Made by a program: the position numbers and the translations under genes. 33,094 nt of DNA from a virus. The stretch is taken from the IMG/VR virus record IMGVR_UViG_3300045988_132076, positions 1 through 33,094 of that record; one strand, written 5' to 3'. Below, one piece after another: positions 120 to 33,094 of this stretch. The notes beneath the pieces were generated by a model, which searched no databases, was not told the origin of the DNA, and worked only from the letters and a program-made list of their open reading frames with translations. Position 1 is the first letter of the stretch, and every line of letters begins with the position of its first letter.

Positions 120-238
120 AGATTGCCGCGGCATGGGTAAGACGGCACAAGGCAACAACAACGCCTAAATTAATACGGCACCTTGTTAGAGAGTGCCGCA
201 TTGCAGACGCTGAAGCGACGAAAGAAGCGGCAGTATGA
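50..238 (+). CDS. Small basic hypothetical protein (62 aa), second gene of the rightward early operon
   Basis: ATG 50 is preceded by GAAAGGAGAAAAACAC. The TTG-8 start in the ORF track would overlap the cro-like gene. No motif recognised. The partial copy at 33025-33094 is the circular overlap. Confidence 0.6.
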   Translation: MKERSIAFGWAGFPAEHAQSLRRKIAAAWVRRHKATTTPKLIRHLVRECRIADAEATKEAAV

Positions 239-522
239 ACGCCGTAATGACGGCGAAAGAAGTAGCCGACTTCTTCCAAATATCCGTTAATGCAGTTTAT
301 GCCATGCGGAATGAAGGAAAACTTCACGCCTTGGAAGTGCCGGGGCTGAGGTTCTCGCGGGAAGAGGTTGAAGCGTTCGCAACGCTCAGGGCTGAATATT
401 CGGCCACAGAGTGCCGAAGGCTTAGGGCTGAGTGTGAACGGCTACAAGATGAAAACGAATGGCTTAGAAGTCAAATCAGGAAGATTACAAGCGACTTGCT
501 TGTAATTAGTAATGAGATTTAG
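235..522 (+). CDS. Excisionase-family / MerR-like HTH DNA-binding protein with a C-terminal coiled coil (candidate Xis or early regulator)
   Basis: ATGA start/stop overlap with the upstream gene. MTAKEVADFFQISVNAVYAMRNEGKL...RFSREEVEAF fits the HTH_17/excisionase pattern. The tail ECRRLRAECERLQDENEWLRSQI is heptad-like. Confidence 0.6.
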   Translation: MNAVMTAKEVADFFQISVNAVYAMRNEGKLHALEVPGLRFSREEVEAFATLRAEYSATECRRLRAECERLQDENEWLRSQIRKITSDLLVISNEI

Positions 523-4813: not shown

Positions 4814-5110
4814 ATGTCACATATAAAATTTGGCGAGTATGAACCGGAAGTGGAGATGATAACCACTGATATAAATAACGCCTCCGCCATGCAACACCTT
4901 TACCGGTTTTCGAACGGGTACGGAGCAAGTGTAATTCAGAATTGCTACAGTTACGGACATGAGTACGGGTTATATGAACTAGCCGTATTAAAAGACGGCA
5001 GGTTGTGCTACAGCACACCGATTACAAGCAACGTTATTGGGTATTTGACTGCTGATAAAGTAGCCAAGCACTTAAGCCGGATAGAAAAACTGCCGAAGGA
5101 AGGAGAATAG
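4814..5110 (+). CDS. Hypothetical phage protein (98 aa)
   Basis: GAGAGGAGAAAAA SD. The GYGASVI...GLYELAVL...YSTPITSNVIGYL pattern recurs in phage early regions. Function unknown. Confidence 0.6.
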   Translation: MSHIKFGEYEPEVEMITTDINNASAMQHLYRFSNGYGASVIQNCYSYGHEYGLYELAVLKDGRLCYSTPITSNVIGYLTADKVAKHLSRIEKLPKEGE

Positions 5111-5112
5111 GC

Positions 5113-5346
5113 ATGAAAAAGACAGAAAAGCGGTACATGACAATAAAAGAAGCTATGGAGTATACGGGCATGGGCGAGGTGACACTTTGTGGAATGTTAG
5201 CGGATATCGACGTATATCCGGTACAGCCTGGCGGATCCGGAACACGGCGGTTTATTGATAAAACGGATATTGATGAAGCGTTCCGAATTTTAAAAGACAA
5301 GGAGCGAGTTATACGGCATACACGAAGTGGACGGCACCCGTTTTAA
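5113..5346 (+). CDS. Small HTH DNA-binding protein (second excisionase/HTH_17-like)
   Basis: GAAGGAGAA SD. MTIKEAMEYTGMGEVTLCGMLA...RRFIDKTDIDEAF fits the short Xis/AlpA-like HTH pattern. Confidence 0.55.
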   Translation: MKKTEKRYMTIKEAMEYTGMGEVTLCGMLADIDVYPVQPGGSGTRRFIDKTDIDEAFRILKDKERVIRHTRSGRHPF

Positions 5347-5858: not shown

Positions 5859-5889
5859 CCAAAATACGACGAAAAAGGAGCAAGCAAAA

Positions 5890-6946: not shown

Positions 6947-7034
6947 GTTAATCGCCTATGTGTGCAAATCGGTAATGTTCTTAGTAGCGGGCATGTTGCT
7001 GATTATGATTTACGCGGAGATGAGTAACCGATGA
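6933..7034 (+). CDS. Unannotated 33-aa hydrophobic peptide
   Basis: The initiation box AAGGAGATAAGCATGAA is an exact 17-nt match to the one at 6748-6764. MNGLELIAYVCKSVMFLVAGMLLIMIYAEMSNR forms one TM helix. ATGA overlap with the next gene at 7031. Confidence 0.45.
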   Translation: MNGLELIAYVCKSVMFLVAGMLLIMIYAEMSNR

Positions 7035-7459
7035 TACGAAGTAAAAAGACGGTAATAGACGGGGTTACGTTCGATAGCAAGACGGAAGCGGAGTATTACG
7101 AGTATCTGAAGAGTCTTGAAAAAGACAAAAAGATATACCGCCTTCGCTGTCACCCTGTATATGTACTGCAAGACGCGGTTGAACGGCACGGGAAGAAGTA
7201 TAAAGCGATTAAGTATATTGCCGACTTTGAGTACTGGAGCGACGAAGAGCAAACGCATGTAGTCGTTGATGTTAAAGGTTACGCAATGGAAGACGCAAGC
7301 CTGAAACGGAAGTTATTCGCGTACAAGTACCCGTTGTATAAACTCGTATGGGTCGCGAAGTCGAACAAATATAGTAACACCGGTTGGATTGATTACGACA
7401 AATTACAGAAGTTAAGACGGAAGGCGAGGAAGGAGCGGAAGAATGGCACGACGAAATAA
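7031..7459 (+). CDS. DUF1064-family protein (PD-(D/E)XK-like, possible structure-specific nuclease)
   Basis: KKTVIDGVTFDSKTEAEYYEYL...IKYIADFEY...VVVDVKGY...LKRKLF matches the DUF1064 pattern. Confidence 0.7.
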   Translation: MIRSKKTVIDGVTFDSKTEAEYYEYLKSLEKDKKIYRLRCHPVYVLQDAVERHGKKYKAIKYIADFEYWSDEEQTHVVVDVKGYAMEDASLKRKLFAYKYPLYKLVWVAKSNKYSNTGWIDYDKLQKLRRKARKERKNGTTK

Positions 7460-7778
7460 GCGACGACATTATCAGGCTCCGCGAATAGTGATACTTGGCA
7501 AGACGGCGGAGAAGAATAAGAAGCCGCGTGAATCCGTGTCACGGTGTGCATTTTGCGGCCGTCCGTTGTTCCGTGAATCCGCATGGCACTGGATATACGA
7601 CGAGTTCGGGCAACGGGTTAAGAAGTGCAACAATGAAGCTATCTGCAGAGAGTGTAGAAGTCAAGAAGGCGAGGACGCTTATATTACGGCAGTGACAGGA
7701 AGGAGACCGAGGCATGACGTTGAAGAAGTACACGAAGCGAAAGCCCGATATAGTAAGAGCAATTCAATTTACGGGTGA
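7443..7778 (+). CDS. Cys-rich putative zinc-ribbon protein (111 aa)
   Basis: AGGAGC SD. CAFCGRP ... CNNEAICRECRS gives a CxxC...CxxC arrangement. Function unknown. Confidence 0.5.
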   Translation: MARRNKRRHYQAPRIVILGKTAEKNKKPRESVSRCAFCGRPLFRESAWHWIYDEFGQRVKKCNNEAICRECRSQEGEDAYITAVTGRRPRHDVEEVHEAKARYSKSNSIYG

Positions 7779-8010
7779 AAATGTAGATGAGATATTGAGA
7801 GAGTTCTGCGGAAGTTGGGGAACTTTTTCGGTTAATGTTACGCAGGAAATACGAGGGGACGGAAAGCACGTGAAGGGACTTAGGCTAAATAGTGATTATG
7901 TAGCAGACTGCAAACTTTTGGAAGGAGATTATCTAGTTAAAACTATGAGCGGTGAGCTTATCGTTCACTGCGAAAGCAGATTTTTAGAAATTTACAAGGA
8001 GATAGAATGA
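7714..8010 (+). CDS. Hypothetical protein (98 aa)
   Basis: GGAAGGAGA lies 7 nt upstream of ATG 7714. It overlaps the previous ORF by 65 nt. Confidence 0.55.
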   Translation: MTLKKYTKRKPDIVRAIQFTGENVDEILREFCGSWGTFSVNVTQEIRGDGKHVKGLRLNSDYVADCKLLEGDYLVKTMSGELIVHCESRFLEIYKEIE

Positions 8011-8198
8011 TAGAAAAAATATTAATTCGATTAGGAACAGCAATTGCAGTCTTAGGGGCGATTGGTGCAATCGTAACAATTCATGTACAGGCATATGCTC
8101 AATTTAAACTGTCTGATTTCGCACTCTTTGTAGCCTTATTTGATTGTTGCTTAGGCTTACTGTTGATATTTTCGGTGCAGATATGGAGAGACAGATGA
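8007..8198 (+). CDS. Small two-TM membrane protein (63 aa)
   Basis: ATGA overlap at 8007. Two hydrophobic stretches (LGTAIAVLGAIGAIVTI and FALFVALFDCCLGLLLIF). Confidence 0.5.
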   Translation: MIEKILIRLGTAIAVLGAIGAIVTIHVQAYAQFKLSDFALFVALFDCCLGLLLIFSVQIWRDR

Positions 8199-8617
8199 AC
8201 GGACGGGAATATCTTGAGTATGTACGAAGTCTGAATGTACGATTGAGAATAAAAGAAGATCGCATTGAACAGCTAAGAAAAGACATATGCACACTACAGG
8301 CGATTGACTACTCGAAAGACCGAATAAGCGGAACGAGTTCAAGTGACATAAGCGATAAGATAATTAAATTAGACGAGCTTATAAACAAAACATATACGGA
8401 ATGGGACACGCTTATAGATGAACGAGAAAAAGCCGAAACGCTTATTAACTCGTTAATTAATGTTTACGAACGGCGAATACTGCAACTGCGGTACGTATAT
8501 TGTAAGAGTTGGAGCGACGTTGAAGACGGTATAAGCATGTCACACGTACAGACCTTTAGACTGCACAAACAGGCGGTAAAACATTTTAACCTTATATATC
8601 GAAAAGACGGAACATAA
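8195..8617 (+). CDS. Sigma-70 region-4-like late transcriptional regulator (RinA/ArpU/DUF1492-type)
   Basis: C-terminal ERRILQLRYVYCKSWSDVEDGISMSHVQTFRLHKQAVKHF is a region-4-type HTH. The N-terminal part is a coiled coil. It is the last early gene before the packaging module. The start is 8195 (ATGA overlap, GGAGA SD) or 8183. Confidence 0.55.
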   Translation: MNGREYLEYVRSLNVRLRIKEDRIEQLRKDICTLQAIDYSKDRISGTSSSDISDKIIKLDELINKTYTEWDTLIDEREKAETLINSLINVYERRILQLRYVYCKSWSDVEDGISMSHVQTFRLHKQAVKHFNLIYRKDGT

Positions 8618-8643
8618 TGGTACAAAATGGTACTGAATGGTAC
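8616..8643 (+). repeat. Three direct AATGGTAC repeats at exact 10-bp spacing
   Basis: AATGGTAC at 8616-8623, 8626-8633 and 8636-8643, beginning at the stop codon of the late regulator. TATGAT and TATAGT hexamers follow at 8652-8662. Confidence 0.85.
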
Positions 8644-8804
8644 AACGGAAGTATGATATAGTGTATATGTGAAAAGTAGGGGATGAAGTTCATGCGTGAA
8701 CGATTCCGAGGAGACAGCTGCGGCGAGTCTCAACCACTAATTCTATATGTAGTTTATTTACAGGTCGGGGCGGTCAATGTGGCCGCCTTTTGCCGTAAAA
8801 AAAT

Positions 8805-8830
8805 AAGCCCTCAATTAAGAGGGCTTTTAT
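8805..8830. terminator. Bidirectional intrinsic terminator
   Basis: AAGCCCTC (8805-8812) / loop AATTAA / GAGGGCTT (8819-8826), with an A-run upstream and TTAT ATTT downstream. It lies 3 nt from the end of the minus-strand gene. Confidence 0.75.
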
Positions 8831-8832
8831 AT

Positions 8833-9348
8833 TTAAACGTCGTAGAACTCACATACTTCGGTCGGTGACAGCGGGACAGAATCTTCAACGAGTCGATTGC
8901 GCCAAACTAGCTGTTTGGTTTGACGGTTTACCGTAAAGAGTAAAACCGTTTTAGCTTTATTCGGATTAAATCCGAGTTCAGCATAGAAATTATCGGTAAA
9001 AGCAAAACCAGGGTGAAGAAGTTCTACCGTCTTTTTATTTCCTTCGGAGATTTCAAAAGCACTGATTTCATTATCATTGCCGAAAATTTCAATTCCGTGA
9101 TTAGCTTTAAACTGTTCAAATGCGGCTGCTTGTAATTTGTTAATTTCCTTTTTTGTGATCTGCATGGTGTTTTCTCCTTTTTTAACGATAGCATTAAGCT
9201 TTTCAATTATTAATCTTTCAGCCCATGCGGGCGGCTGTCTTTTTTCGGCTTCCCAATCCTGAACGGTTCTAACCGGAACTCCGATTAACTTATAAACCTG
9301 TGCTTGTGTTAACCCGGCCTTTTCTCTAGCTTCTTTAATTGCTGTCAT
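8833..9348 (-). CDS. XRE-type HTH fused to an unknown ~107-aa domain (171 aa). This is the only antisense gene within the early/late block
   Basis: AAAGGAG lies 8 nt upstream of ATG 9348 (the track start at 9357 is a GTG abutting the SD). The HTH is GLTQAQVYKLIGVPVRTVQDWEAEKRQPP. An internal in-frame ATG at 9165 is preceded by AAAGGAGAAAACACC. Confidence 0.8.
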   Translation of the reverse strand: MTAIKEAREKAGLTQAQVYKLIGVPVRTVQDWEAEKRQPPAWAERLIIEKLNAIVKKGENTMQITKKEINKLQAAAFEQFKANHGIEIFGNDNEISAFEISEGNKKTVELLHPGFAFTDNFYAELGFNPNKAKTVLLFTVNRQTKQLVWRNRLVEDSVPLSPTEVCEFYDV

Positions 9349-9386
9349 CTTGGTCACTCCTTTATGTGATTTCCTTTGTTGAGTAC

Positions 9387-9415
9387 ACTATAACACGCAT
9401 TGCGTGTCTTGTCAA
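9387..9415 (-). promoter_or_regulatory. Near-consensus sigma-70-type promoter with a palindromic operator in the spacer
   Basis: On the minus strand: TTGACA (9415-9410), a 17-nt spacer, then TATAGT (9392-9387). The spacer contains ACACGC-ATT-GCGTGT (9393-9407). Confidence 0.7.
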
Positions 9416-9497
9416 ATGAAATTATGGAAGTTTTTAAAATATTTTTTTGTTCATTACAAACGGCATAACCAAGCCGATAAAAAGGAAGTGAAACTAT

Positions 9498-9956
9498 ATG
9501 AGCGAAGAAAAAAAGAGCGAAAAATTAAATCCGAAGCAAGAGAGATTTGCTATTGAATATATTAAAGACATGAATATGACGAAAGCCGCGGAAAGAGCGG
9601 GATACAGCAAAAAGAGTGCGATAATGCACGGCTCAAGATTGCTTAGAAGTGCTAAGGTACGGGAAAAAGTCGCAGAACTTGAAGCGGAAGTAAAAAATGA
9701 AGCTATCGCAACGGCTCAAGAAGTTGAAGAGTTTTTAAGTGCAGCAATGCGGGGCGAGTTAACAGAAGAAAAGAGTTATAAGAACGCGAAAGAGAAGAAG
9801 GAAAAACAGATCGCAATGAAAGAACGAATAAAAGCGGCTGAACTTCTTGCTAAGCGTTACGCGTTGTTGACAGAAAAAACGGAGTTAAGCGGTAAAGACG
9901 GACAGCCGATTGTTATAGAGTTCTCACATATGCGACGGAACGAAGATACAGAATAG
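9498..9956 (+). CDS. terS: Terminase small subunit
   Basis: LNPKQERFAIEYIKDMNMTKAAERAGYSKKSAIMHGSRLL matches the Terminase_2-type N-terminal HTH. It lies upstream of terL. Confidence 0.85.
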   Translation: MSEEKKSEKLNPKQERFAIEYIKDMNMTKAAERAGYSKKSAIMHGSRLLRSAKVREKVAELEAEVKNEAIATAQEVEEFLSAAMRGELTEEKSYKNAKEKKEKQIAMKERIKAAELLAKRYALLTEKTELSGKDGQPIVIEFSHMRRNEDTE

Positions 9957-10069
9957 TCTTATATACATATGTAAGGAAAACGAAAGCACTAGAATTGATA
10001 GAATTATTCCTTGAAGTTGTATAAAAGTATCGTATAAGCACGGGATAGAAGAAGAAAAACGGAATAAAT

Positions 10070-11428
10070 ATGAATATTACAATCGATTACATGCCGAATG
10101 TGCGGCAAGATGAATTTCATATGTGCAACGCTCCGTATGCGGTTTACGGTGGTGCCAGAGGCGGTGGCAAGACCAAAGCGTTAGTAATGGATTGTCTCGC
10201 TTATTGTCTTGAGCATAGCGGCTGTAATGCGTATTTGTTCCGAGAAACATATCCGAATCTTGAAGCAAACGTAATAAGAGAGTGGAAACGCTCAGTGCCG
10301 AGAGAGTTATACGAGTATTCAGAGCAAAAACACATTGCTACTTTGATAAACGGATCTAAAGTATTATTCCGATACGTTCGTACAGAGAAAGACGCAGAAA
10401 CGTACCAAGGTCAAGAGTTCGACTACCTTGGCATTGACGAATTGACGAAGCACACGGAGCGAACAGCCGAGTTATTAACGGCGTGTCTTCGTTCGTCTCG
10501 TGGATTCCCTGTCCGCTTCCGAGGTTCGTGTAATCCCGGCGGCAAGGGTCACGGATGGGTTAAGCGTAAATACGTCGAAGCAACCGAATACGGTAAACAT
10601 GAAGTTATCGACAAGACAACCGGATTAGAAAAGATGTTTATCCCGGCTCGTGTTTATGATAACGATGTTTTAATGAAGAATGACCCGAATTACGTAAAGC
10701 GTCTTGAAGCGTTGCCGGAGCAAGAGAAGAAAGCGTTCTTATACGGTGACTGGGATGTATTTATTGGACAAGTTTTTACGGAGTTCAATAGAGATAAGCA
10801 TGTAGAAGAACCGTTTACAATCCCTGACGATTGGATAAAAGCCCGCTCGATGGACTGGGGTTTTTCTAAGCCGTTTTCTATTCATTGGTACGCGATTGAT
10901 TATGACGGTATAGCTCATTGTTACCGTGAATATTACGGCTGCACAGGCGAACCGGATGAAGGGTTAAAGCTAACACCGGATGAAGTAGCTGCCGAAGTCG
11001 TGCGATTATCGGGTAATGAACGATATACGTATGATGTCGCTGATAAAGCGATATGGCAAAAAGACGACCGTATGAAATGGAGTATCCAAGGTGAAAGCAT
11101 AGCTGAGATATTTGAGCGACACGGGATTTACTTCACTCGCTCTAATTCTGAACGTATTGCGGGTAAACTCATGGTTCATCAGTATTTAAGGGAAGAGAAA
11201 ATAAAATTCTTCTCGACGTGTAAGCATATGTTAAGAACACTACCGGAGCTTGTGTATGATGAGTCAAAACCTGAAGACGTAGACACAACTCAGGAAGATC
11301 ATGCATATGATGAGCTGCGGTATTTCTGTATGAGCCGGCCGATTAAACCGACACGACCGAAGAAGGAATTTAGCGACGGATATAAAACGATAGACGACAG
11401 TGAAGAGGTGACAGTATGGGGAATTTAA
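10070..11428 (+). CDS. terL: Terminase large subunit
   Basis: Walker A GGARGGGKT, Walker B-like YLGIDELT, 452 aa, followed by the portal gene. Confidence 0.9.
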   Translation: MNITIDYMPNVRQDEFHMCNAPYAVYGGARGGGKTKALVMDCLAYCLEHSGCNAYLFRETYPNLEANVIREWKRSVPRELYEYSEQKHIATLINGSKVLFRYVRTEKDAETYQGQEFDYLGIDELTKHTERTAELLTACLRSSRGFPVRFRGSCNPGGKGHGWVKRKYVEATEYGKHEVIDKTTGLEKMFIPARVYDNDVLMKNDPNYVKRLEALPEQEKKAFLYGDWDVFIGQVFTEFNRDKHVEEPFTIPDDWIKARSMDWGFSKPFSIHWYAIDYDGIAHCYREYYGCTGEPDEGLKLTPDEVAAEVVRLSGNERYTYDVADKAIWQKDDRMKWSIQGESIAEIFERHGIYFTRSNSERIAGKLMVHQYLREEKIKFFSTCKHMLRTLPELVYDESKPEDVDTTQEDHAYDELRYFCMSRPIKPTRPKKEFSDGYKTIDDSEEVTVWGI

Positions 11429-13419
11429 AGGGCTTTGATATAGAAGCGGCACGGAGACGGGTAAAAAGTGCGTTGAGTGCTACTAGTGATTGGCGAGAAC
11501 GAGCCAAAGAAGATTACGAGTTTATGCAAGGTAAGCAATGGGCTGACGCGGATTTATCGCGTATGAAGAAAGCGGGAAGACCGGCAATTACGATTAACCG
11601 AATCCGACCGGTTATAAATCTGTTATGCGGATATGCAGCACAAAACGAGACGGAACCCGACTTTTTACCAAGGTCCGAAGAAGACGATAGAATAAGCCGA
11701 GTCGCAAAAGGGATTACTAAGTATTGTCTTGACCGTGCAAATTATCAGCGAACGAAAAATAAATGCTTCAGAGATAAAGTTATATGCGGTCTCGCTAACT
11801 ACTGGATTACGTACGACTTCGATTATTCAAGACTTGACGGCACTATTAAGATTGACAGAGTTAGCCCGTTTGACGCGTTTATAGACCCTGAATCACAACA
11901 AGAAGATTTGAGCGACGCTCAGTATTGCGGCCGTTACTCGTGGGAAAGCCCTGATAAACTACGGCAAATATACAGCGACAAGCAGAAAGAAATAGACACG
12001 CTACAACATAAGCTTGATAGCACTGAAACAGCTGTTGACACGATAAATACGGAAAAACTTTGGTATGATACCGACTTCAAGAAAGTACGAGTTGTTCAGT
12101 ATTGGTATAAGGAATATAAGACTCAAGAAGTCTATATGACCAAAGAAGGCGTTGTTACAGAAGATAATCCGTTATTTATACAGCTTAAAGCGACAGGAAC
12201 GCAGCCGACAACGATACCGAAGACGGTTATACAATATGCGACGTTTTGCGATGATGTATTGTTGGAAGACGGCGAAAGCCCGTACAAGCATGGAAAATTT
12301 CCGTTAGTGCGTGAATATTGTTATTACACCGGGGAACTGTCAGACGCTGAATTAGAACCCGCGGGCGTTGTTCGAGATATAAAGGACGCACAGCGGGAAC
12401 TAAACAAGAACCGCAGCCAACGTATGCACGTTGTCAATCAACAGTCGTTAGGAGTTAAATTCTGGACTGGTGTCGTTGATGAGCAGTTAAAGAAGACAAT
12501 AAAGGAAAAAGCAACAACGCCTGGAGCAAACATATTCCTACCGAACGGCGTAAGTTATCAAGACGGTACACCCGCTTATGACAGTTCAGTGAATATAAAT
12601 CTTGAGCAACAATCAAGCAATGATTTTTATTCTATTAGCGGCATAACGCCTGAATCATTAAGTGGTAGCGTTGGAGCCATGAGCGGTAAGGCGATCGACT
12701 TACGTCAGTCAGTAACGACAGTGCAGACAGCGGGAATATTCGACCAGACGAAGGAAACAGAACGGCAGATTGTTCAGCTTCTATGGGGCGAAAAGAACGC
12801 TGAAGGACTTATACCACAGTTTTATAATCAAGATAAAGTAATGCGGATACTGGGCGATGACGGGCAAAAAGAATTTATACAGATTACGCCGAATTTAGGG
12901 CAACCTATGCAAGAACAATTTGCGGTTGACCCGATGACAGGAATGCCGAAAACAGACGAAGACGGCAACCCGATTAAGAAAGTATTGTATGACCTTTCTT
13001 GCTTTGATTTTGATATCGTCATTACAACTTCTCAAGCGTCTGCAACGGCACGACGGGCAAACTTGTATCAACTGCTTGAAGCGAAGAAATCAGGCGTTGA
13101 TATTCCTATGGATATTATTCTCGACTTCATGGACTTCCCCGAAAAAGAAAGCGTTAAGAAGAGAATGCAAGAGGCGGCAGAACAGCCGAATTTGCCCGAC
13201 GTACGTATAAACGGACGGCTTGCGGATTTACCCGCTGAAGCGTTAAGTACAGCCCTTTCTAGCATTGGCGTACAGATGTCTCCTGAAGAGATATTGCAAG
13301 AACGGTTAGCAATGAAAGGGTACGCACCGCCGCCGCAGATACAACAGCCGCAAGGCGTGCAACAGTTAGGGCAAGACCAGCAACAAATGCAGTTATTGCA
13401 GAATATGCAACAACTATAA
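11416..13419 (+). CDS. Portal protein (667 aa) with a Q-rich C-terminal tail
   Basis: Position after terL. EDYEFMQGKQWADADLSRMKKAGRPAITINRIRPVINLLCG is a typical portal N-terminal motif. The C-terminus is PPPQIQQPQGVQQLGQDQQQMQLLQNMQQL. Confidence 0.85.
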   Translation: MGNLKGFDIEAARRRVKSALSATSDWRERAKEDYEFMQGKQWADADLSRMKKAGRPAITINRIRPVINLLCGYAAQNETEPDFLPRSEEDDRISRVAKGITKYCLDRANYQRTKNKCFRDKVICGLANYWITYDFDYSRLDGTIKIDRVSPFDAFIDPESQQEDLSDAQYCGRYSWESPDKLRQIYSDKQKEIDTLQHKLDSTETAVDTINTEKLWYDTDFKKVRVVQYWYKEYKTQEVYMTKEGVVTEDNPLFIQLKATGTQPTTIPKTVIQYATFCDDVLLEDGESPYKHGKFPLVREYCYYTGELSDAELEPAGVVRDIKDAQRELNKNRSQRMHVVNQQSLGVKFWTGVVDEQLKKTIKEKATTPGANIFLPNGVSYQDGTPAYDSSVNINLEQQSSNDFYSISGITPESLSGSVGAMSGKAIDLRQSVTTVQTAGIFDQTKETERQIVQLLWGEKNAEGLIPQFYNQDKVMRILGDDGQKEFIQITPNLGQPMQEQFAVDPMTGMPKTDEDGNPIKKVLYDLSCFDFDIVITTSQASATARRANLYQLLEAKKSGVDIPMDIILDFMDFPEKESVKKRMQEAAEQPNLPDVRINGRLADLPAEALSTALSSIGVQMSPEEILQERLAMKGYAPPPQIQQPQGVQQLGQDQQQMQLLQNMQQL

Positions 13420-30659: not shown

Positions 30660-31712
30660 TCAAAAACTTTTGCTAAAAATATTAGCGACATTCTCCGCCG
30701 CCTTCATTCTCATATCGTCCGTGTAATGTACATATACTTTAATTACAGTGTTTACGTTATCGCCTAACAAGCTAGCTACGGTTTTAATATCGACTCCGTT
30801 CGCAAGTAGCTTTGTTGCATACGTATGCCGTAAATCGTGGAACGTCTTATCAGGCATAAGCTTCTTTAAAATGCGAGGGACGTACTTACTGTTTTTCTTC
30901 GGGAATAATAGGCGATCCGATTGAGTCGCTTTATATTCCCTAAGAATCTCGCATAATATAGGCGGTATGGGAATGGTTCTATAACTATTGACGGTTTTAG
31001 GTGCTGTTACTCCGAATTTCTTCGAATCAACAATAGTAACCTGTTTATTAATTGTAATGGTTTTTCCGTCAAGGTCAATATCTTCCCATGTAAGTCCTAG
31101 AATTTCACCAATGCGACACCCGGCATAATAAGCAATGGAAATCATAACACGGGCGTACCCGTCTATGTTAGAAAAAACAACCTTCATTTCTTCGTCAGAA
31201 AATGTAGAAACTTTTTTGACGCTTTCTTTACGTCTGGGTACCGCGTTAAACGGGTTTTCCCTGATAAGCTTATAAGGGCGAACGGCGTAATTCGCAATCG
31301 CTTTTAGTATTCTTAAGTATAGGTTCATAGTACTGGGGGCAATATGAATCTCATTAAATGCCCTTATCACAAGATTATGATTGATATTACGAAGTTCTGT
31401 ATTAGTAAGCATGGGGAATGACTTTAAAGCGACTCTATACATAGCTTTTGTGCTGTAGGTAAGGTTGACTTTTTCACGCAAAAAGACTTCCGCAAATTCG
31501 CCAAAGGTTATATCTCTCATATTCTCGTCAATTGGCGTTATTTGAGTTTTTAAGGCTTCTATTATCTGTTGCCCGTACTCTTTTGCTTCCCTTTGTGTTC
31601 GGAAGCCCTGCTTTGATTTTTGCCGCCATTTTCGGCCGTCTTTATACGATACTATGACCTGATAGGCGTTGTCCTTCTTACGAGTTGTTATATTACTTTG
31701 CATTATCCTCAA
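30660..31712 (-). CDS. int: Tyrosine integrase
   Basis: Arm-binding-like N-terminus (AYQVIVSYKDGRKWRQKSKQGFRTQREAKEY). Catalytic boxes YYAGCRIGEILGLTWEDID, HDLRHTYATKLL and VYVHYT. The start is TTG 31712 or ATG 31703. Confidence 0.9.
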   Translation of the reverse strand: MRIMQSNITTRKKDNAYQVIVSYKDGRKWRQKSKQGFRTQREAKEYGQQIIEALKTQITPIDENMRDITFGEFAEVFLREKVNLTYSTKAMYRVALKSFPMLTNTELRNINHNLVIRAFNEIHIAPSTMNLYLRILKAIANYAVRPYKLIRENPFNAVPRRKESVKKVSTFSDEEMKVVFSNIDGYARVMISIAYYAGCRIGEILGLTWEDIDLDGKTITINKQVTIVDSKKFGVTAPKTVNSYRTIPIPPILCEILREYKATQSDRLLFPKKNSKYVPRILKKLMPDKTFHDLRHTYATKLLANGVDIKTVASLLGDNVNTVIKVYVHYTDDMRMKAAENVANIFSKSF

Positions 31713-31923: not shown

Positions 31924-32184
31924 TCACACAACTTGGCAATAAAATTCAATCCCTTCGGCTTCCGGGATAATATCACTTCGGCGAATCATTTCTTCTATCA
32001 TGTTTGCTTGAATTTCTCTATTAAAATCATTGCTTACTATGTGGCTTAATTCGTGAACCACTTCTTTTTTTGCCTGTTCTCGTGATAACGACTTACTTAT
32101 AATTATCGAATAACTGCCGTCCTCGTTTTCTATTACAGAGGCTTTAGCGTAGGGAATAGAAGCAAATATTATATTAATTGTCAT
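31924..32184 (-). CDS. Minimal ImmA/IrrE-like zinc metallopeptidase (86 aa)
   Basis: GSYSIIISKSLSREQAKKEVVHELSHIV contains HExxH in the usual ImmA context. It overlaps the repressor 3' end by 11 nt. Confidence 0.6.
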   Translation of the reverse strand: MTINIIFASIPYAKASVIENEDGSYSIIISKSLSREQAKKEVVHELSHIVSNDFNREIQANMIEEMIRRSDIIPEAEGIEFYCQVV

Positions 32185-32620
32185 TATATTCTTCCTTAGA
32201 TTTTAGGTATTTAATAAAGTTATATGCTTCTTGCATTTGCTCTTTTGTTAAATCTCTACTTGCACTAAATAAAACTCGTAAGTCTTTATTTGTTCTTAAC
32301 TCTTCGGCATATTGTGCTGTTTGAGGATTAATATAATAGCCGTCGTTTTCATCGTATGTAGAGGTTTCTTTTTTAGGTTCGTCCCAACCCATTAAATACA
32401 CCGGCGATACATTGTAGGCGGCGGCAAGCTTTTCCAACTTATCAGCCGGTACGGCAATATCGGCTTTTTCGTATCTTGAAATAGTAGCGTTGCTTACGCC
32501 GATTAACTTCCCCGCTTCTTCCATTGTTAAATCAGCCGCCAATCTAGCTTCTTTAAGCCGTCTTGCTAACCCTTGCTTTTCTTCAGTAATATCCTGTCCC
32601 CAACGGTTCTTTGCTGACAT
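32174..32620 (-). CDS. XRE-family phage repressor (ImmR/CI-like, no S24 peptidase domain)
   Basis: AAGGAG lies 8 nt upstream of ATG 32620. The HTH is LTMEEAGKLIGVSNATISRYEKAD. The track start at 32674 lies upstream of the predicted -10 box and is therefore rejected. Confidence 0.85.
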   Translation of the reverse strand: MSAKNRWGQDITEEKQGLARRLKEARLAADLTMEEAGKLIGVSNATISRYEKADIAVPADKLEKLAAAYNVSPVYLMGWDEPKKETSTYDENDGYYINPQTAQYAEELRTNKDLRVLFSASRDLTKEQMQEAYNFIKYLKSKEEYNDN

Positions 32621-32662
32621 ATTTATTACTCCTTTATAACAACCCGACGATAATTTAATGAC

Positions 32663-32691
32663 AATATAGCCCATTTCTGCCTGACCGTCAA
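32663..32691 (-). promoter_or_regulatory. Leftward promoter of the repressor operon
   Basis: On the minus strand: TTGACG (32691-32686), a 17-nt spacer, then TATATT (32668-32663). The spacer carries a TTCTGCCT motif (32675-32682). Confidence 0.6.
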
Positions 32692-32792: not shown

Positions 32793-33002
32793 ATGAAGAT
32801 ACAAGCGGATAGAATCCGCGGGGAAATCGTTGCCCGTGGATTTAAACAAAAAGACCTTGCAAAGGCACTTGGCATAACGGCTCATGCGTTCCAGTACCGT
32901 TTAAAAACTGGCCGTTTTAACTCTGACCAGTTGTATACGATTGCCAAAATGCTCAAATTGGAAAACCCTTGGCAAATTTTTTTTGCTGATGATATTACCT
33001 AA
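32793..33002 (+). CDS. Cro-like XRE HTH protein (69 aa)
   Basis: GAAAGGAGAAAACA SD. The HTH is FKQKDLAKALGITAHAFQYRLKTGR. It is divergent from the repressor. Confidence 0.8.
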   Translation: MKIQADRIRGEIVARGFKQKDLAKALGITAHAFQYRLKTGRFNSDQLYTIAKMLKLENPWQIFFADDIT

Positions 33003-33094
33003 AAGGCAGAAAGGAGAAAAACACATGAAAGAAAGAAGTATTGCGTTCGGTTGGGCTGGGTTTCCCGCTGAACACGCCCAATCATTGAGAAGGA
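32976..33094. repeat. Terminal overlap, copy 2 (identical to 1-119)
   Basis: See copy 1. Confidence 0.9.

Follow-up and report, generated by a model that had tools for sequence, protein, structure and literature searches.

The IMG/VR virus record IMGVR_UViG_3300045988_132076, analyzed here over its whole length of 33,094 nucleotides (nt; hereafter the window), carries between its late-regulator gene and terS a leftward gene that encodes an XRE-type helix-turn-helix (HTH) domain joined to a C-terminal domain, termed X here, for which no family could be found. We consider it probable that this gene, HTH::X, and the control sequences around it form an accessory cassette that is autonomous and represses its own expression, with the regulator and the cargo fused in one reading frame. 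To judge from its sequence relatives, it is one member of a large family of cassettes in phages of human-associated Firmicutes. The case for this reading is built on a promoter that holds an operator-like inverted repeat within its spacer and recurs upstream of the same HTH subfamily in other phages, on the occurrence of X as a free-standing gene, and on the retention of a ribosome-binding site for X inside the coding sequence of the fusion.

Predicted promoter, operator, and terminator of the cassette

Transcription of HTH::X would be driven by a minus-strand promoter (9415-9387) that consists of the -35 hexamer TTGACA (9410-9415), a 17-nt spacer, and the extended -10 element TGtTATAGT (9387-9395, with TATAGT at 9392-9387 and the TG at 9395-9394). 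Of the 12 consensus positions, 11 are matched, a score that no other site on either strand of the 33-kb window equals or exceeds. Upstream of the -35 hexamer, an A/T-rich region read from the sequence (9416-9450, minus strand), which is possibly an UP-element, is also found in the consensus of 63 unique related promoters. The spacer is occupied by ACACGC-AAT-GCGTGT (9407-9393), a perfect 6-3-6 inverted repeat to which the HTH domain is predicted to bind as a dimer. Palindromes of this form are not rare as such in the window (9 observed, 8.1 expected), and what makes this one notable is where it lies, within the spacer, and that other phages have kept it. The dyad occurs only once in the window, and a phage-wide regulon acting through a second operator was dropped as a possibility, as the best other site has 2 mismatches, lies inside a tail gene, and is consistent with chance. 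The transcript probably starts near 9380-9384, and the 5' leader (9349-9386, minus strand), in which no significant RNA structure was found, contains the Shine-Dalgarno (SD) sequence AAGGAG (9362-9357). Immediately 3' of the -10 stands GTACTCAACA, which is kept in the related loci L004, L001, and L052. At the far end of the gene, AAGCCCTC-loop-GAGGGCTT (8795-8826, with the hairpin at 8826-8805) is a predicted bidirectional intrinsic terminator that has T-runs and scores on both strands and is identical in L004, L001, L052, and L054.

An earlier note made from the letters of the window had claimed the promoter TTGACA-17 nt-TATAGT, a perfect palindrome at 9393-9407 filling its spacer, and a hairpin terminator at 8805-8830, and had taken these together as the self-contained layout of a moron. 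All three features hold up at those positions, with the terminator proving to be bidirectional, and the idea of a self-contained unit gains from the presence of the same HTH::X gene and dyad in a different prophage (L049). The note had treated the locus as a one-off, and the cassette family is, by its sequence relationships, much larger.

The promoter/operator pattern TTGACA-N3-CACGCAWTGCGTG-N-TATAAT, searched for in IMG/VR as TTGACA-N3-CACGCA-N-TGCGTG-N-TA.A.T with 22 fixed bases, occurs exactly in 72 viral contigs against a chance expectation of about 0.01. A hidden Markov model of the HTH domain detected a member of the subfamily downstream in 57 of 75 instances, and several of the remaining loci end shortly after the promoter. 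Dyad position 7, which flanks the core and was left free in the search pattern, is complementary in 52 of 63 unique instances and is occupied by CG, TA, GC, and AT pairs; a dimer-bound site would be expected to show such symmetry-preserving covariation. The core C[A/G]CGCA[A/T]TGC[G/A]TG is found at the same spacer position in L052, L004, and L001, which are close relatives in the same genomic slot as the window cassette, and also in L049 and L059. L049-L051 represent a different prophage, whose last gene is an HTH::X gene 67% identical to that of the window and likewise has the dyad in its promoter spacer. This gene converges with the lysis genes, and host DNA (recQ-thyA-dhfr) begins about 230 bp away. 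The host in L049 (1-4550), L050, and L051 is Megasphaera-like (Veillonellaceae), with a ThyA 79-85% identical to that of Megasphaera. In L059, the promoter TTGACA-ACACACGCAGTGCGTGG-TACAAT drives an unrelated gene for a very acidic protein of 83 amino acids (aa) and, after it, a gene in which the same HTH is joined to another domain, Y. By all these indications the operator dyad belongs to the HTH gene and moves with it into other phages and slots.

The fusion gene and its HTH domain

The coding sequence of HTH::X (8833-9348, minus strand, TAA stop included) starts at ATG 9348 and specifies 171 aa. The SD AAGGAG lies 8 nt 5' of this codon, and GTG 9357, where the listed open reading frame (ORF) starts, is an unlikely start because it falls inside that SD. 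The N-terminal XRE-type HTH domain (residues 1-58; 9175-9348, minus strand) was recognized both by Pfam, as HTH_3 (PF01381; residues 4-39, E 4.5e-9, 36.6 bits against a cutoff of 23), and in an AlphaFold2 (AF2) model, where its four helices span residues 3-10, 15-22, 26-33, and 41-58. Among its conserved residues are R27, T28, D31, and W32. In the full-length model, this four-helix domain and a separate C-terminal domain are joined by a linker with a predicted local distance difference test score (pLDDT) below 50.

A word-indexed search of 5.8 billion proteins returned only 17 relatives, 13 of which are full-length fusions (154-176 aa, 65-100% identical) from multiple independent contigs and many samples. 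Among the other four, P0015 and P0016 are free X proteins, and P0017 has a different C-terminal domain; the latter could be aligned with X by MAFFT but, at an hhalign probability of 0.09, was rejected as a relative and is the unrelated domain Y. The fourth, P0014 (110 aa), was considered as a natural C-terminal-only gene and proved to be an assembly artefact of another fusion, as a run of Ns at about 5860-5875 of the ENA scaffold L001 split the HTH::X gene and led to the deposition of a spurious 110-aa protein. P0014 is a caution for any count of natural stand-alone X genes. Ratios of nonsynonymous to synonymous substitution rates (dN/dS) of 0.08-0.19 indicate purifying selection in both halves of the fusion. 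At synonymous sites the two halves tell different stories: compared with L052, the window has a dS of 0.19 in the HTH and 1.05 in X, and compared with L004, a proportion of synonymous differences (pS) of 0.80 in the HTH and a dS of 0.36 in X, a discordance that points to recombination at the linker.

When the profile of the HTH subfamily was compared with PDB, the best matches were Atu1735, DBP48, and HigA-2, with the 434 and P22 repressors also found, and no anti-CRISPR-associated (Aca) protein was returned. The HTH sequence, searched against PDB sequences that include Aca1, Aca2, Aca3, AcrIIA1, AcrIIA15, and AcrIF24, gave only a chance-level match to Aca3 (E 0.51). Matches to antitoxin-type models stayed below their cutoffs, with 24.2 bits against 25.8 for Xre-like-HTH, 12.2 against 30 for MqsA_antitoxin, and 25-26 against 62-72 for the NCBIfam MqsA and HipB-type models. 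A single-protein scan of species-representative genome contigs returned only HTH-only relatives, from Lachnospiraceae, and the fusion was not among them. Such stand-alone HTH proteins are frequent in Lachnospiraceae genomes (Blautia, Dorea, and Anaerobutyricum), where they precede variable second genes, including a DinD-like gene and one located beside DUF2075 and MazG-like genes.

Domain X as an independent module

The core of domain X (residues 62-153; 8890-9165, minus strand) is modeled as a long helix, two beta-hairpins, and a short helix, and carries the motifs AAFExF, GF, and LFxVNRQTKQL. When 1.84 billion representatives were searched exhaustively with HMMER and a profile of X alone, 21 proteins were recovered, most of them stand-alone and 86-115 aa long, that have these motifs in common, and an AF2 model of X from the alignment of these relatives reached a pLDDT of 83.9 and a predicted template modeling (TM) score of 0.72. 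P0015 and P0016 (L002, L003, L008, and L009) come from free-standing ORFs that lack a preceding HTH and begin exactly at the equivalent of M62. The cassette of L087, which has the same type of promoter/operator, keeps the two modules apart: directly 5' of its HTH gene lies an X gene with an SD of its own. Other stand-alone X genes follow strong promoters, and in L010/L011 the promoter has a different palindrome in its spacer, TTGACA-ATATACTTCCGTAAGTA-TATAAT. From its distribution, X can be regarded as an independent module that occurs free-standing, in genes of 86-120 aa, in the accessory regions of phages and mobile elements.

Residues 62-171 had no match in Pfam or PHROG, and profile searches with X against Pfam, PHROGs, PDB sequences, PADLOC, and NCBIfam were empty. 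Structure prediction and a Foldseek search of the C-terminal domain, which the earlier note had proposed, likewise placed it in no family or fold: against PDB and BFVD there was no significant match, the best hits having E values of 0.02-0.2 and TM scores of at most about 0.5, and faint matches to microvirus "nonstructural/DNA binding" proteins were not trusted. No likeness in sequence or fold was found between X and the anti-CRISPRs (Acrs) in PDB, Pfam, and PHROGs. The description of the product as an XRE HTH fused to an unplaced domain is thus accurate, HTH_3 being its only Pfam match and the free X genes beginning at M62.

The protein ends in a disordered tail of about 15 residues (8836-8889, minus strand; pLDDT below 50) that terminates in EVCEFYDV. 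The tail has a dN/dS of 0.14-0.19, is missing from distant stand-alone X proteins, and may be a short docking or degradation motif. The tail of X (VEDS...EVCEFYDV) and the end of P0017 (IEDT...DFYNV; L059 1030-1089) are alike, although domains X and Y are unrelated.

Elements with more distant X genes showed further features. L056 and L057 carry distant X homologs in same-strand arrays (around 5001-5264) of about 25 small unannotated genes, 55-250 aa in length, together with a DarA_C fragment and a short tyrosine recombinase, an arrangement that by analogy resembles an early or leading-region anti-defense island. In elements with stand-alone X, near-identical promoter/leader modules of about 90 nt, each with a consensus promoter, an operator-like palindrome, and a small GC hairpin just 5' of the SD, are repeated before successive small genes (L002 800-900 and 1850-1950; L009 3900-4000 and 5130-5200; L011 at about 2230, 2950, and 3950). 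These modules suggest further repressor-controlled arrays of accessory genes with other specificities.

A conserved putative internal start site in the linker

The linker codons of the fusion double as a putative internal ribosome-binding site (9163-9180, minus strand), in which AAAGGAG (9180-9174) is followed after 8 nt by the ATG of M62 (9165-9163). The earlier note had pointed to this in-frame SD and ATG and to the use of the same initiation box elsewhere in the genome. The box GAAAGGAGAAAA does precede the ATGs at 55 and 32797, the copy at 33009 being the same as that at 34 on account of the terminal repeat, and the internal site is not a chance occurrence, as an SD and ATG are present at unchanged spacing in every fusion. 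The site reads AAAGGAGaaaacaccATG in the window and L052, AAAGGAGaatacatcATG in L004, and ttGGAGGAGacgatataATG in L049, the most divergent lineage, where IGGDDI has replaced the linker residues KKGENT, yet the arrangement AGGAG-8 nt-ATG is maintained. Free-standing X genes have the SD AAAGGGGA at the equivalent place. Compared with shuffled controls, the RNA around the internal start has less structure (z +1.64), and its minimum-free-energy fold leaves the SD unpaired. Taken at the level of sequence, the internal SD and ATG are the ancestral ribosome-binding site of X; its retention is at least suggestive of continued use, and translation from 9165 would follow.

The cassette family and its cargo

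Members of the family share a layout in which the promoter/operator is followed by 0-5 genes and then by the HTH. The 144 cassette proteins fall into 75 clusters, almost none of which have a Pfam or PHROG annotation, and many of the first genes are small and strongly acidic, with isoelectric points (pI) of 4.1-4.9. The only annotated matches among the cargo are to extra HTH or sigma-type DNA-binding domains, an AP2/HNH endonuclease, Phage_Gp111, and tail-fiber-like PHROGs. The HTH itself occurs alone, as a protein of 55-70 aa, or in proteins of 103-290 aa that add variable domains on either side, such as Y in P0017 and yet another domain in L076. A short HTH is never the first gene (0 of 16), and every first-position HTH carries an extra domain, so that a non-HTH module is never missing from a cassette; where the cassette consists of a single gene, as in the window, only the fused domain is a candidate for the cargo. 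There is no gene upstream of HTH::X in the window and L052, whereas L004-L007 have an upstream 85-aa gene (pI 4.3) whose stop codon overlaps the HTH start, and L001 has a 155-aa gene and an 85-aa gene. The acidic 85-aa protein and the acidic 83-aa protein of L059 were compared as possible homologs and are not homologous to each other.

Where landmarks can be recognized, cassettes diverge from terS or terL at at least eight loci, lie beside integrases at six, and are near lysins at three. A survey of homologs for a terS-proximal position, as the earlier note had advised, accordingly gave a divided answer: L052, L004, and L001 occupy the same slot as the window cassette and the divergent arrangement is common, but the L049 cassette is at a prophage end. 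One subfamily (L062, L064, L084, L086, L092, L102, L120, and L126) has two constant genes at its end, one for a basic protein of about 195 aa (PHROG 10678) and, next to it, one for a 60-aa HTH, and the genes upstream of this pair are swapped freely, e.g., 98-97, 232-71, 189-73, 98-73-74, and 116-108-156-74 aa.

Genomic context

An exact direct terminal repeat of 119 bp (positions 1-119 and 32976-33094) identifies the window as a complete, circularly assembled genome of a temperate gut or oral phage with a unit length of 32,975 bp. The rightward block contains an HTH_17 gene (235-522, plus strand) and genes for Gp157, a Rad52-like protein, a replisome organizer, SSB, and DUF1064, and continues through the DUF1492 late regulator (8144-8617) to terS (9498-9956), terL, the portal, structural genes, and a GH25 lysin. 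HTH::X, in the slot between the late regulator and terS, is the sole credible minus-strand gene of this block, as the earlier note had it, and the GC skew and AT skew both change sign across 8750-9500, as expected of minus-strand coding. The other minus-strand genes of the window are the integrase (30660-31712) and, beside it, a CI-like HTH (32174-32674), so that HTH::X lies outside the lysogeny module and away from the position of a CI-type lysogeny repressor. The divergent intergenic region between HTH::X and terS is 149 bp. Rfam and tRNA scans of the window were empty, a megablast search of 7000-12000 against GenBank phages returned no match, and tblastn of the 171-aa protein gave generic HTH matches only, the best of which, Javan413, is irrelevant, being the CI-like repressor of a satellite next to its integrase.

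On the plus strand after the late-regulator gene (8604-8830), three direct repeats of AATGGTAC at 10-bp spacing are followed by a -10-like TATGATATAGT. This element has counterparts in L004 (8514-8750), L001 (6331-6570), L052 (5502-5740), and L054 (710-950), and in L001 and L052 all three repeats are ATGACAC, a concerted change. The approximately 150 nt 3' of the array are 98-100% identical among these phages, though the neighboring X coding sequence has a dS of about 1, and this stretch has a strong predicted structure, has no Rfam match, and ends in two terminators, one of which is the bidirectional terminator of the cassette. The array and the conserved stretch may be an activator-dependent promoter with a leader or small RNA converging on the cassette.

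A model for the cassette and its alternatives

For the HTH::X cassette, we propose that the near-consensus promoter, which is of the host sigma-70 type with an extended -10, would need no phage factors to fire, whether on entry or in the lysogen. The HTH domain, as a dimer, would occupy the 15-bp dyad in the spacer and, as a form of negative feedback, shut the promoter once the protein has accumulated. X would be the payload fused to this regulator, and because the fusion would have retained the SD and start codon of X, the mRNA would probably give both full-length HTH-X and free X. The slot upstream of the regulator would take further payload genes. What the sequences show is the anatomy of the locus, its conservation, the covariation of the dyad, the modular make-up, purifying selection, and the lack of a known homolog; DNA binding and repression by the HTH domain, translation from M62, the biological target of X, and any anti-defense or defense activity are inferred. 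X is most likely an inhibitor or modulator aimed at a function of the host or of a competitor. An anti-defense role is plausible, at somewhat less than an even chance, and a role in exclusion or defense is somewhat unlikely. That X is an unrecognized anti-defense or counter-phage effector made in two forms, a free form of 110 aa from the internal start and an HTH-tethered form of 171 aa, is a tentative proposal, possible but doubtful; the tethered form would couple the level of the effector, and possibly its engagement of the target, to repression of its own promoter.

Several observations weigh against the model. No Aca family with a solved structure could be shown to include the HTH, and the solved proteins nearest to it are of the antitoxin type (e.g., HigA-2); no cargo protein, X included, matches a known anti-defense or defense family in the libraries searched. 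X has a pI of 5.4, a mild acidity that sets it apart from classic DNA mimics. The Lys-Gly-Glu or Gly-Gly-Asp codons might account for the survival of the internal SD as a relic, and the adjacency of X and HTH in L087, together with their fusion here, could mean that X is instead a partner or modulator of the regulator. Finally, the lower GC content claimed in the earlier note stands as a figure, 39.5% in the gene against about 44% in the flanking blocks, but the dip is not specific to the cassette, as the entire stretch from 7750 to 10250 is equally low (37-41%), and GC content was dropped as a sign of foreign origin.

It is also conceivable, although we regard it as unlikely, that the locus is a prophage-expressed defense or exclusion module of the toxin-antitoxin or abortive-infection type, expressed in the lysogen from a host-type promoter and shielding the host from other phages, with the HTH as an antitoxin-like autorepressor and X or the upstream genes as the effector. 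Such a module would fit the presence of HigA-2 among the closest solved relatives of the HTH and the weak NCBIfam/Pfam matches to MqsA, HipB, and Xre-antitoxin types, but every one of these antitoxin-family matches falls under its curated cutoff. The slots occupied by the family, at a prophage end next to host DNA (L049), beside integrases, and after lysins, are those of lysogenic conversion, and a factor-independent promoter with its own terminator would serve such a module equally, as would the variable second genes that follow stand-alone HTHs in Lachnospiraceae, one of them beside DUF2075/MazG-like genes. Against this, X and the sampled cargo match neither PADLOC nor any known toxin fold, the cargo is hypervariable, mostly very acidic, and located upstream of the regulator, which is typical of inhibitors and not of RelE/ParE-like toxins, and the window cassette, consisting of one gene, offers no partner.

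Quite unlikely, in our estimation, is an ordinary two-domain transcription factor, in which X would be an oligomerization, sensor, or co-regulator domain, the internal SD and ATG a silent relic of the fusion, and the task the control of nearby phage genes, such as those of the divergent terS/late operon, or of early/middle-operon read-through. An HTH with a C-terminal domain is the standard repressor layout, the operator is about 90 bp from the terS ATG, at least eight related cassettes diverge from terS or terL, and bidirectional regulation is described for Aca11 and Aca13 (PMC12282945). The arrangement of X beside the HTH gene in L087 and fused to it here is also a Rosetta-stone hint of physical interaction, and a highly conserved element with an activator-type repeat array lies just downstream, convergent on the cassette. 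However, HTH::X and its dyad in L049 stand at a prophage end with host DNA upstream and no divergent phage gene, and other cassettes are beside integrases or lysins. The HTHs of the subfamily exist as stand-alone proteins, so that X is dispensable for dimerization, and their lineage is fused to unrelated domains, while X occurs alone under other promoters in unrelated elements; the window, moreover, offers no dyad beyond that of the cassette apart from the mismatched tail-gene site. That faulty assembly or sequencing produced the fusion, or that two neighboring genes were joined recently in an inactivating event, is so improbable as to be effectively refuted: P0014 shows that scaffold N-runs do create artefacts in such data, but the fusion frame is intact in 13 distinct sequences obtained from many samples by many assemblers, purifying selection acts on both halves and on the tail, and the fusion persists on two different phage backbones.

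Relation to known systems

Fusions of an HTH to an effector, several with an inverted repeat between the -35 and -10, are described in PMC10901769, PMC12282945, and PMC13551039; they include AcrIIA1, AcrIIA6, AcrIIA13-15, AcrIF24, AcrIIA32 with an Aca13 domain, and AcrIIA36, which carries an Aca12 domain. HTH::X resembles these Acr-Aca fusions (PMC10901769, PMC12282945) in combining a putative HTH autorepressor and effector in one polypeptide with a flexible linker, in having the HTH at the N terminus, as in all known fused type II Acrs, and in placing an inverted repeat between the -35 and -10 of a strong promoter at a temperate phage or prophage locus. Unlike in them, its HTH has no detectable sequence kinship with the Acas of solved structure, and X has no Acr likeness in PDB, Pfam, or PHROGs. 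A conserved internal ribosome-binding site and start for a free effector was not found described for Acr-Aca fusions in the available text of PMC10901769, PMC12282945, and PMC13551039. By analogy, the locus would work like an Acr-Aca fusion; it is not filed as one because its HTH has not been placed in a known Aca family and its payload has no match.

The parallel to Acr-Aca loci drawn in the earlier note is therefore apt in architecture, as related cassettes have variable, often acidic small genes upstream of a constant HTH. Like canonical acr-aca operons (Aca1-Aca14), the family combines a constant HTH, last or near last in the operon, with an operator in the promoter and swappable small upstream genes, many of them acidic or unannotated. 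It differs in that the window cassette has no upstream cargo gene, with the fused domain as the only cargo, and in that no cargo protein of the family matches a known Acr or anti-defense protein. The cassette also shares with phage morons its own promoter and terminator, an orientation independent of the surrounding operon, a location at module junctions (late regulator/terS, prophage end, or integrase), and a content that varies among syntenic phages. Unlike a generic moron, it has a dedicated putative autorepressor and a promoter/operator kept across dozens of phages, and its compositional contrast is weak. As in HigA-2/MqsA-type antitoxins, the HTH is small, of the XRE type, probably autoregulated at a promoter palindrome, and often encoded by the downstream gene of a two-gene operon, and by profile these antitoxins are its closest solved relatives, but with scores under all curated family cutoffs. 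Unlike type II toxin-antitoxin systems, the cassettes have no partner from a toxin family, the upstream genes of the relatives being acidic, diverse, unannotated, and not RelE/ParE-like.

Significance

The locus brings together the fusion of a probable autorepressor to its cargo with a conserved putative internal start, a cargo without a detectable fold match, and a cassette family that was not found described in the searchable literature, in which neither the operator consensus CACGCAWTGCGTG nor the peptide motifs were found. X itself is a compact domain of about 90 aa that is confidently modeled and has no detectable structural relative in PDB or BFVD. A regulator-cargo fusion that keeps the start of the cargo raises the idea that a tethered and a free effector may be made from one ORF. 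If our reading is correct, the 29-bp promoter/operator signature together with the HTH is an anchor, searchable by sequence, for feedback-controlled accessory operons in phages of the gut and mouth, whose cargo comprises at least 75 protein clusters, is almost wholly uncharacterized, and is enriched in small, very acidic proteins. Many of the known DNA mimics that inhibit restriction and CRISPR systems are likewise small and very acidic. The discovery of anti-CRISPRs, mostly from Proteobacteria, Listeria, Staphylococcus, and Streptococcus, has profited from Aca genes as anchors. If X does prove to be an anti-defense or counter-phage effector, the promoter/operator and HTH described here would mark a large reservoir of anti-defense genes for dozens of unrelated acidic small proteins, carried by phages of human-associated Firmicutes, which could be explored through guilt by association as was done with Aca genes.

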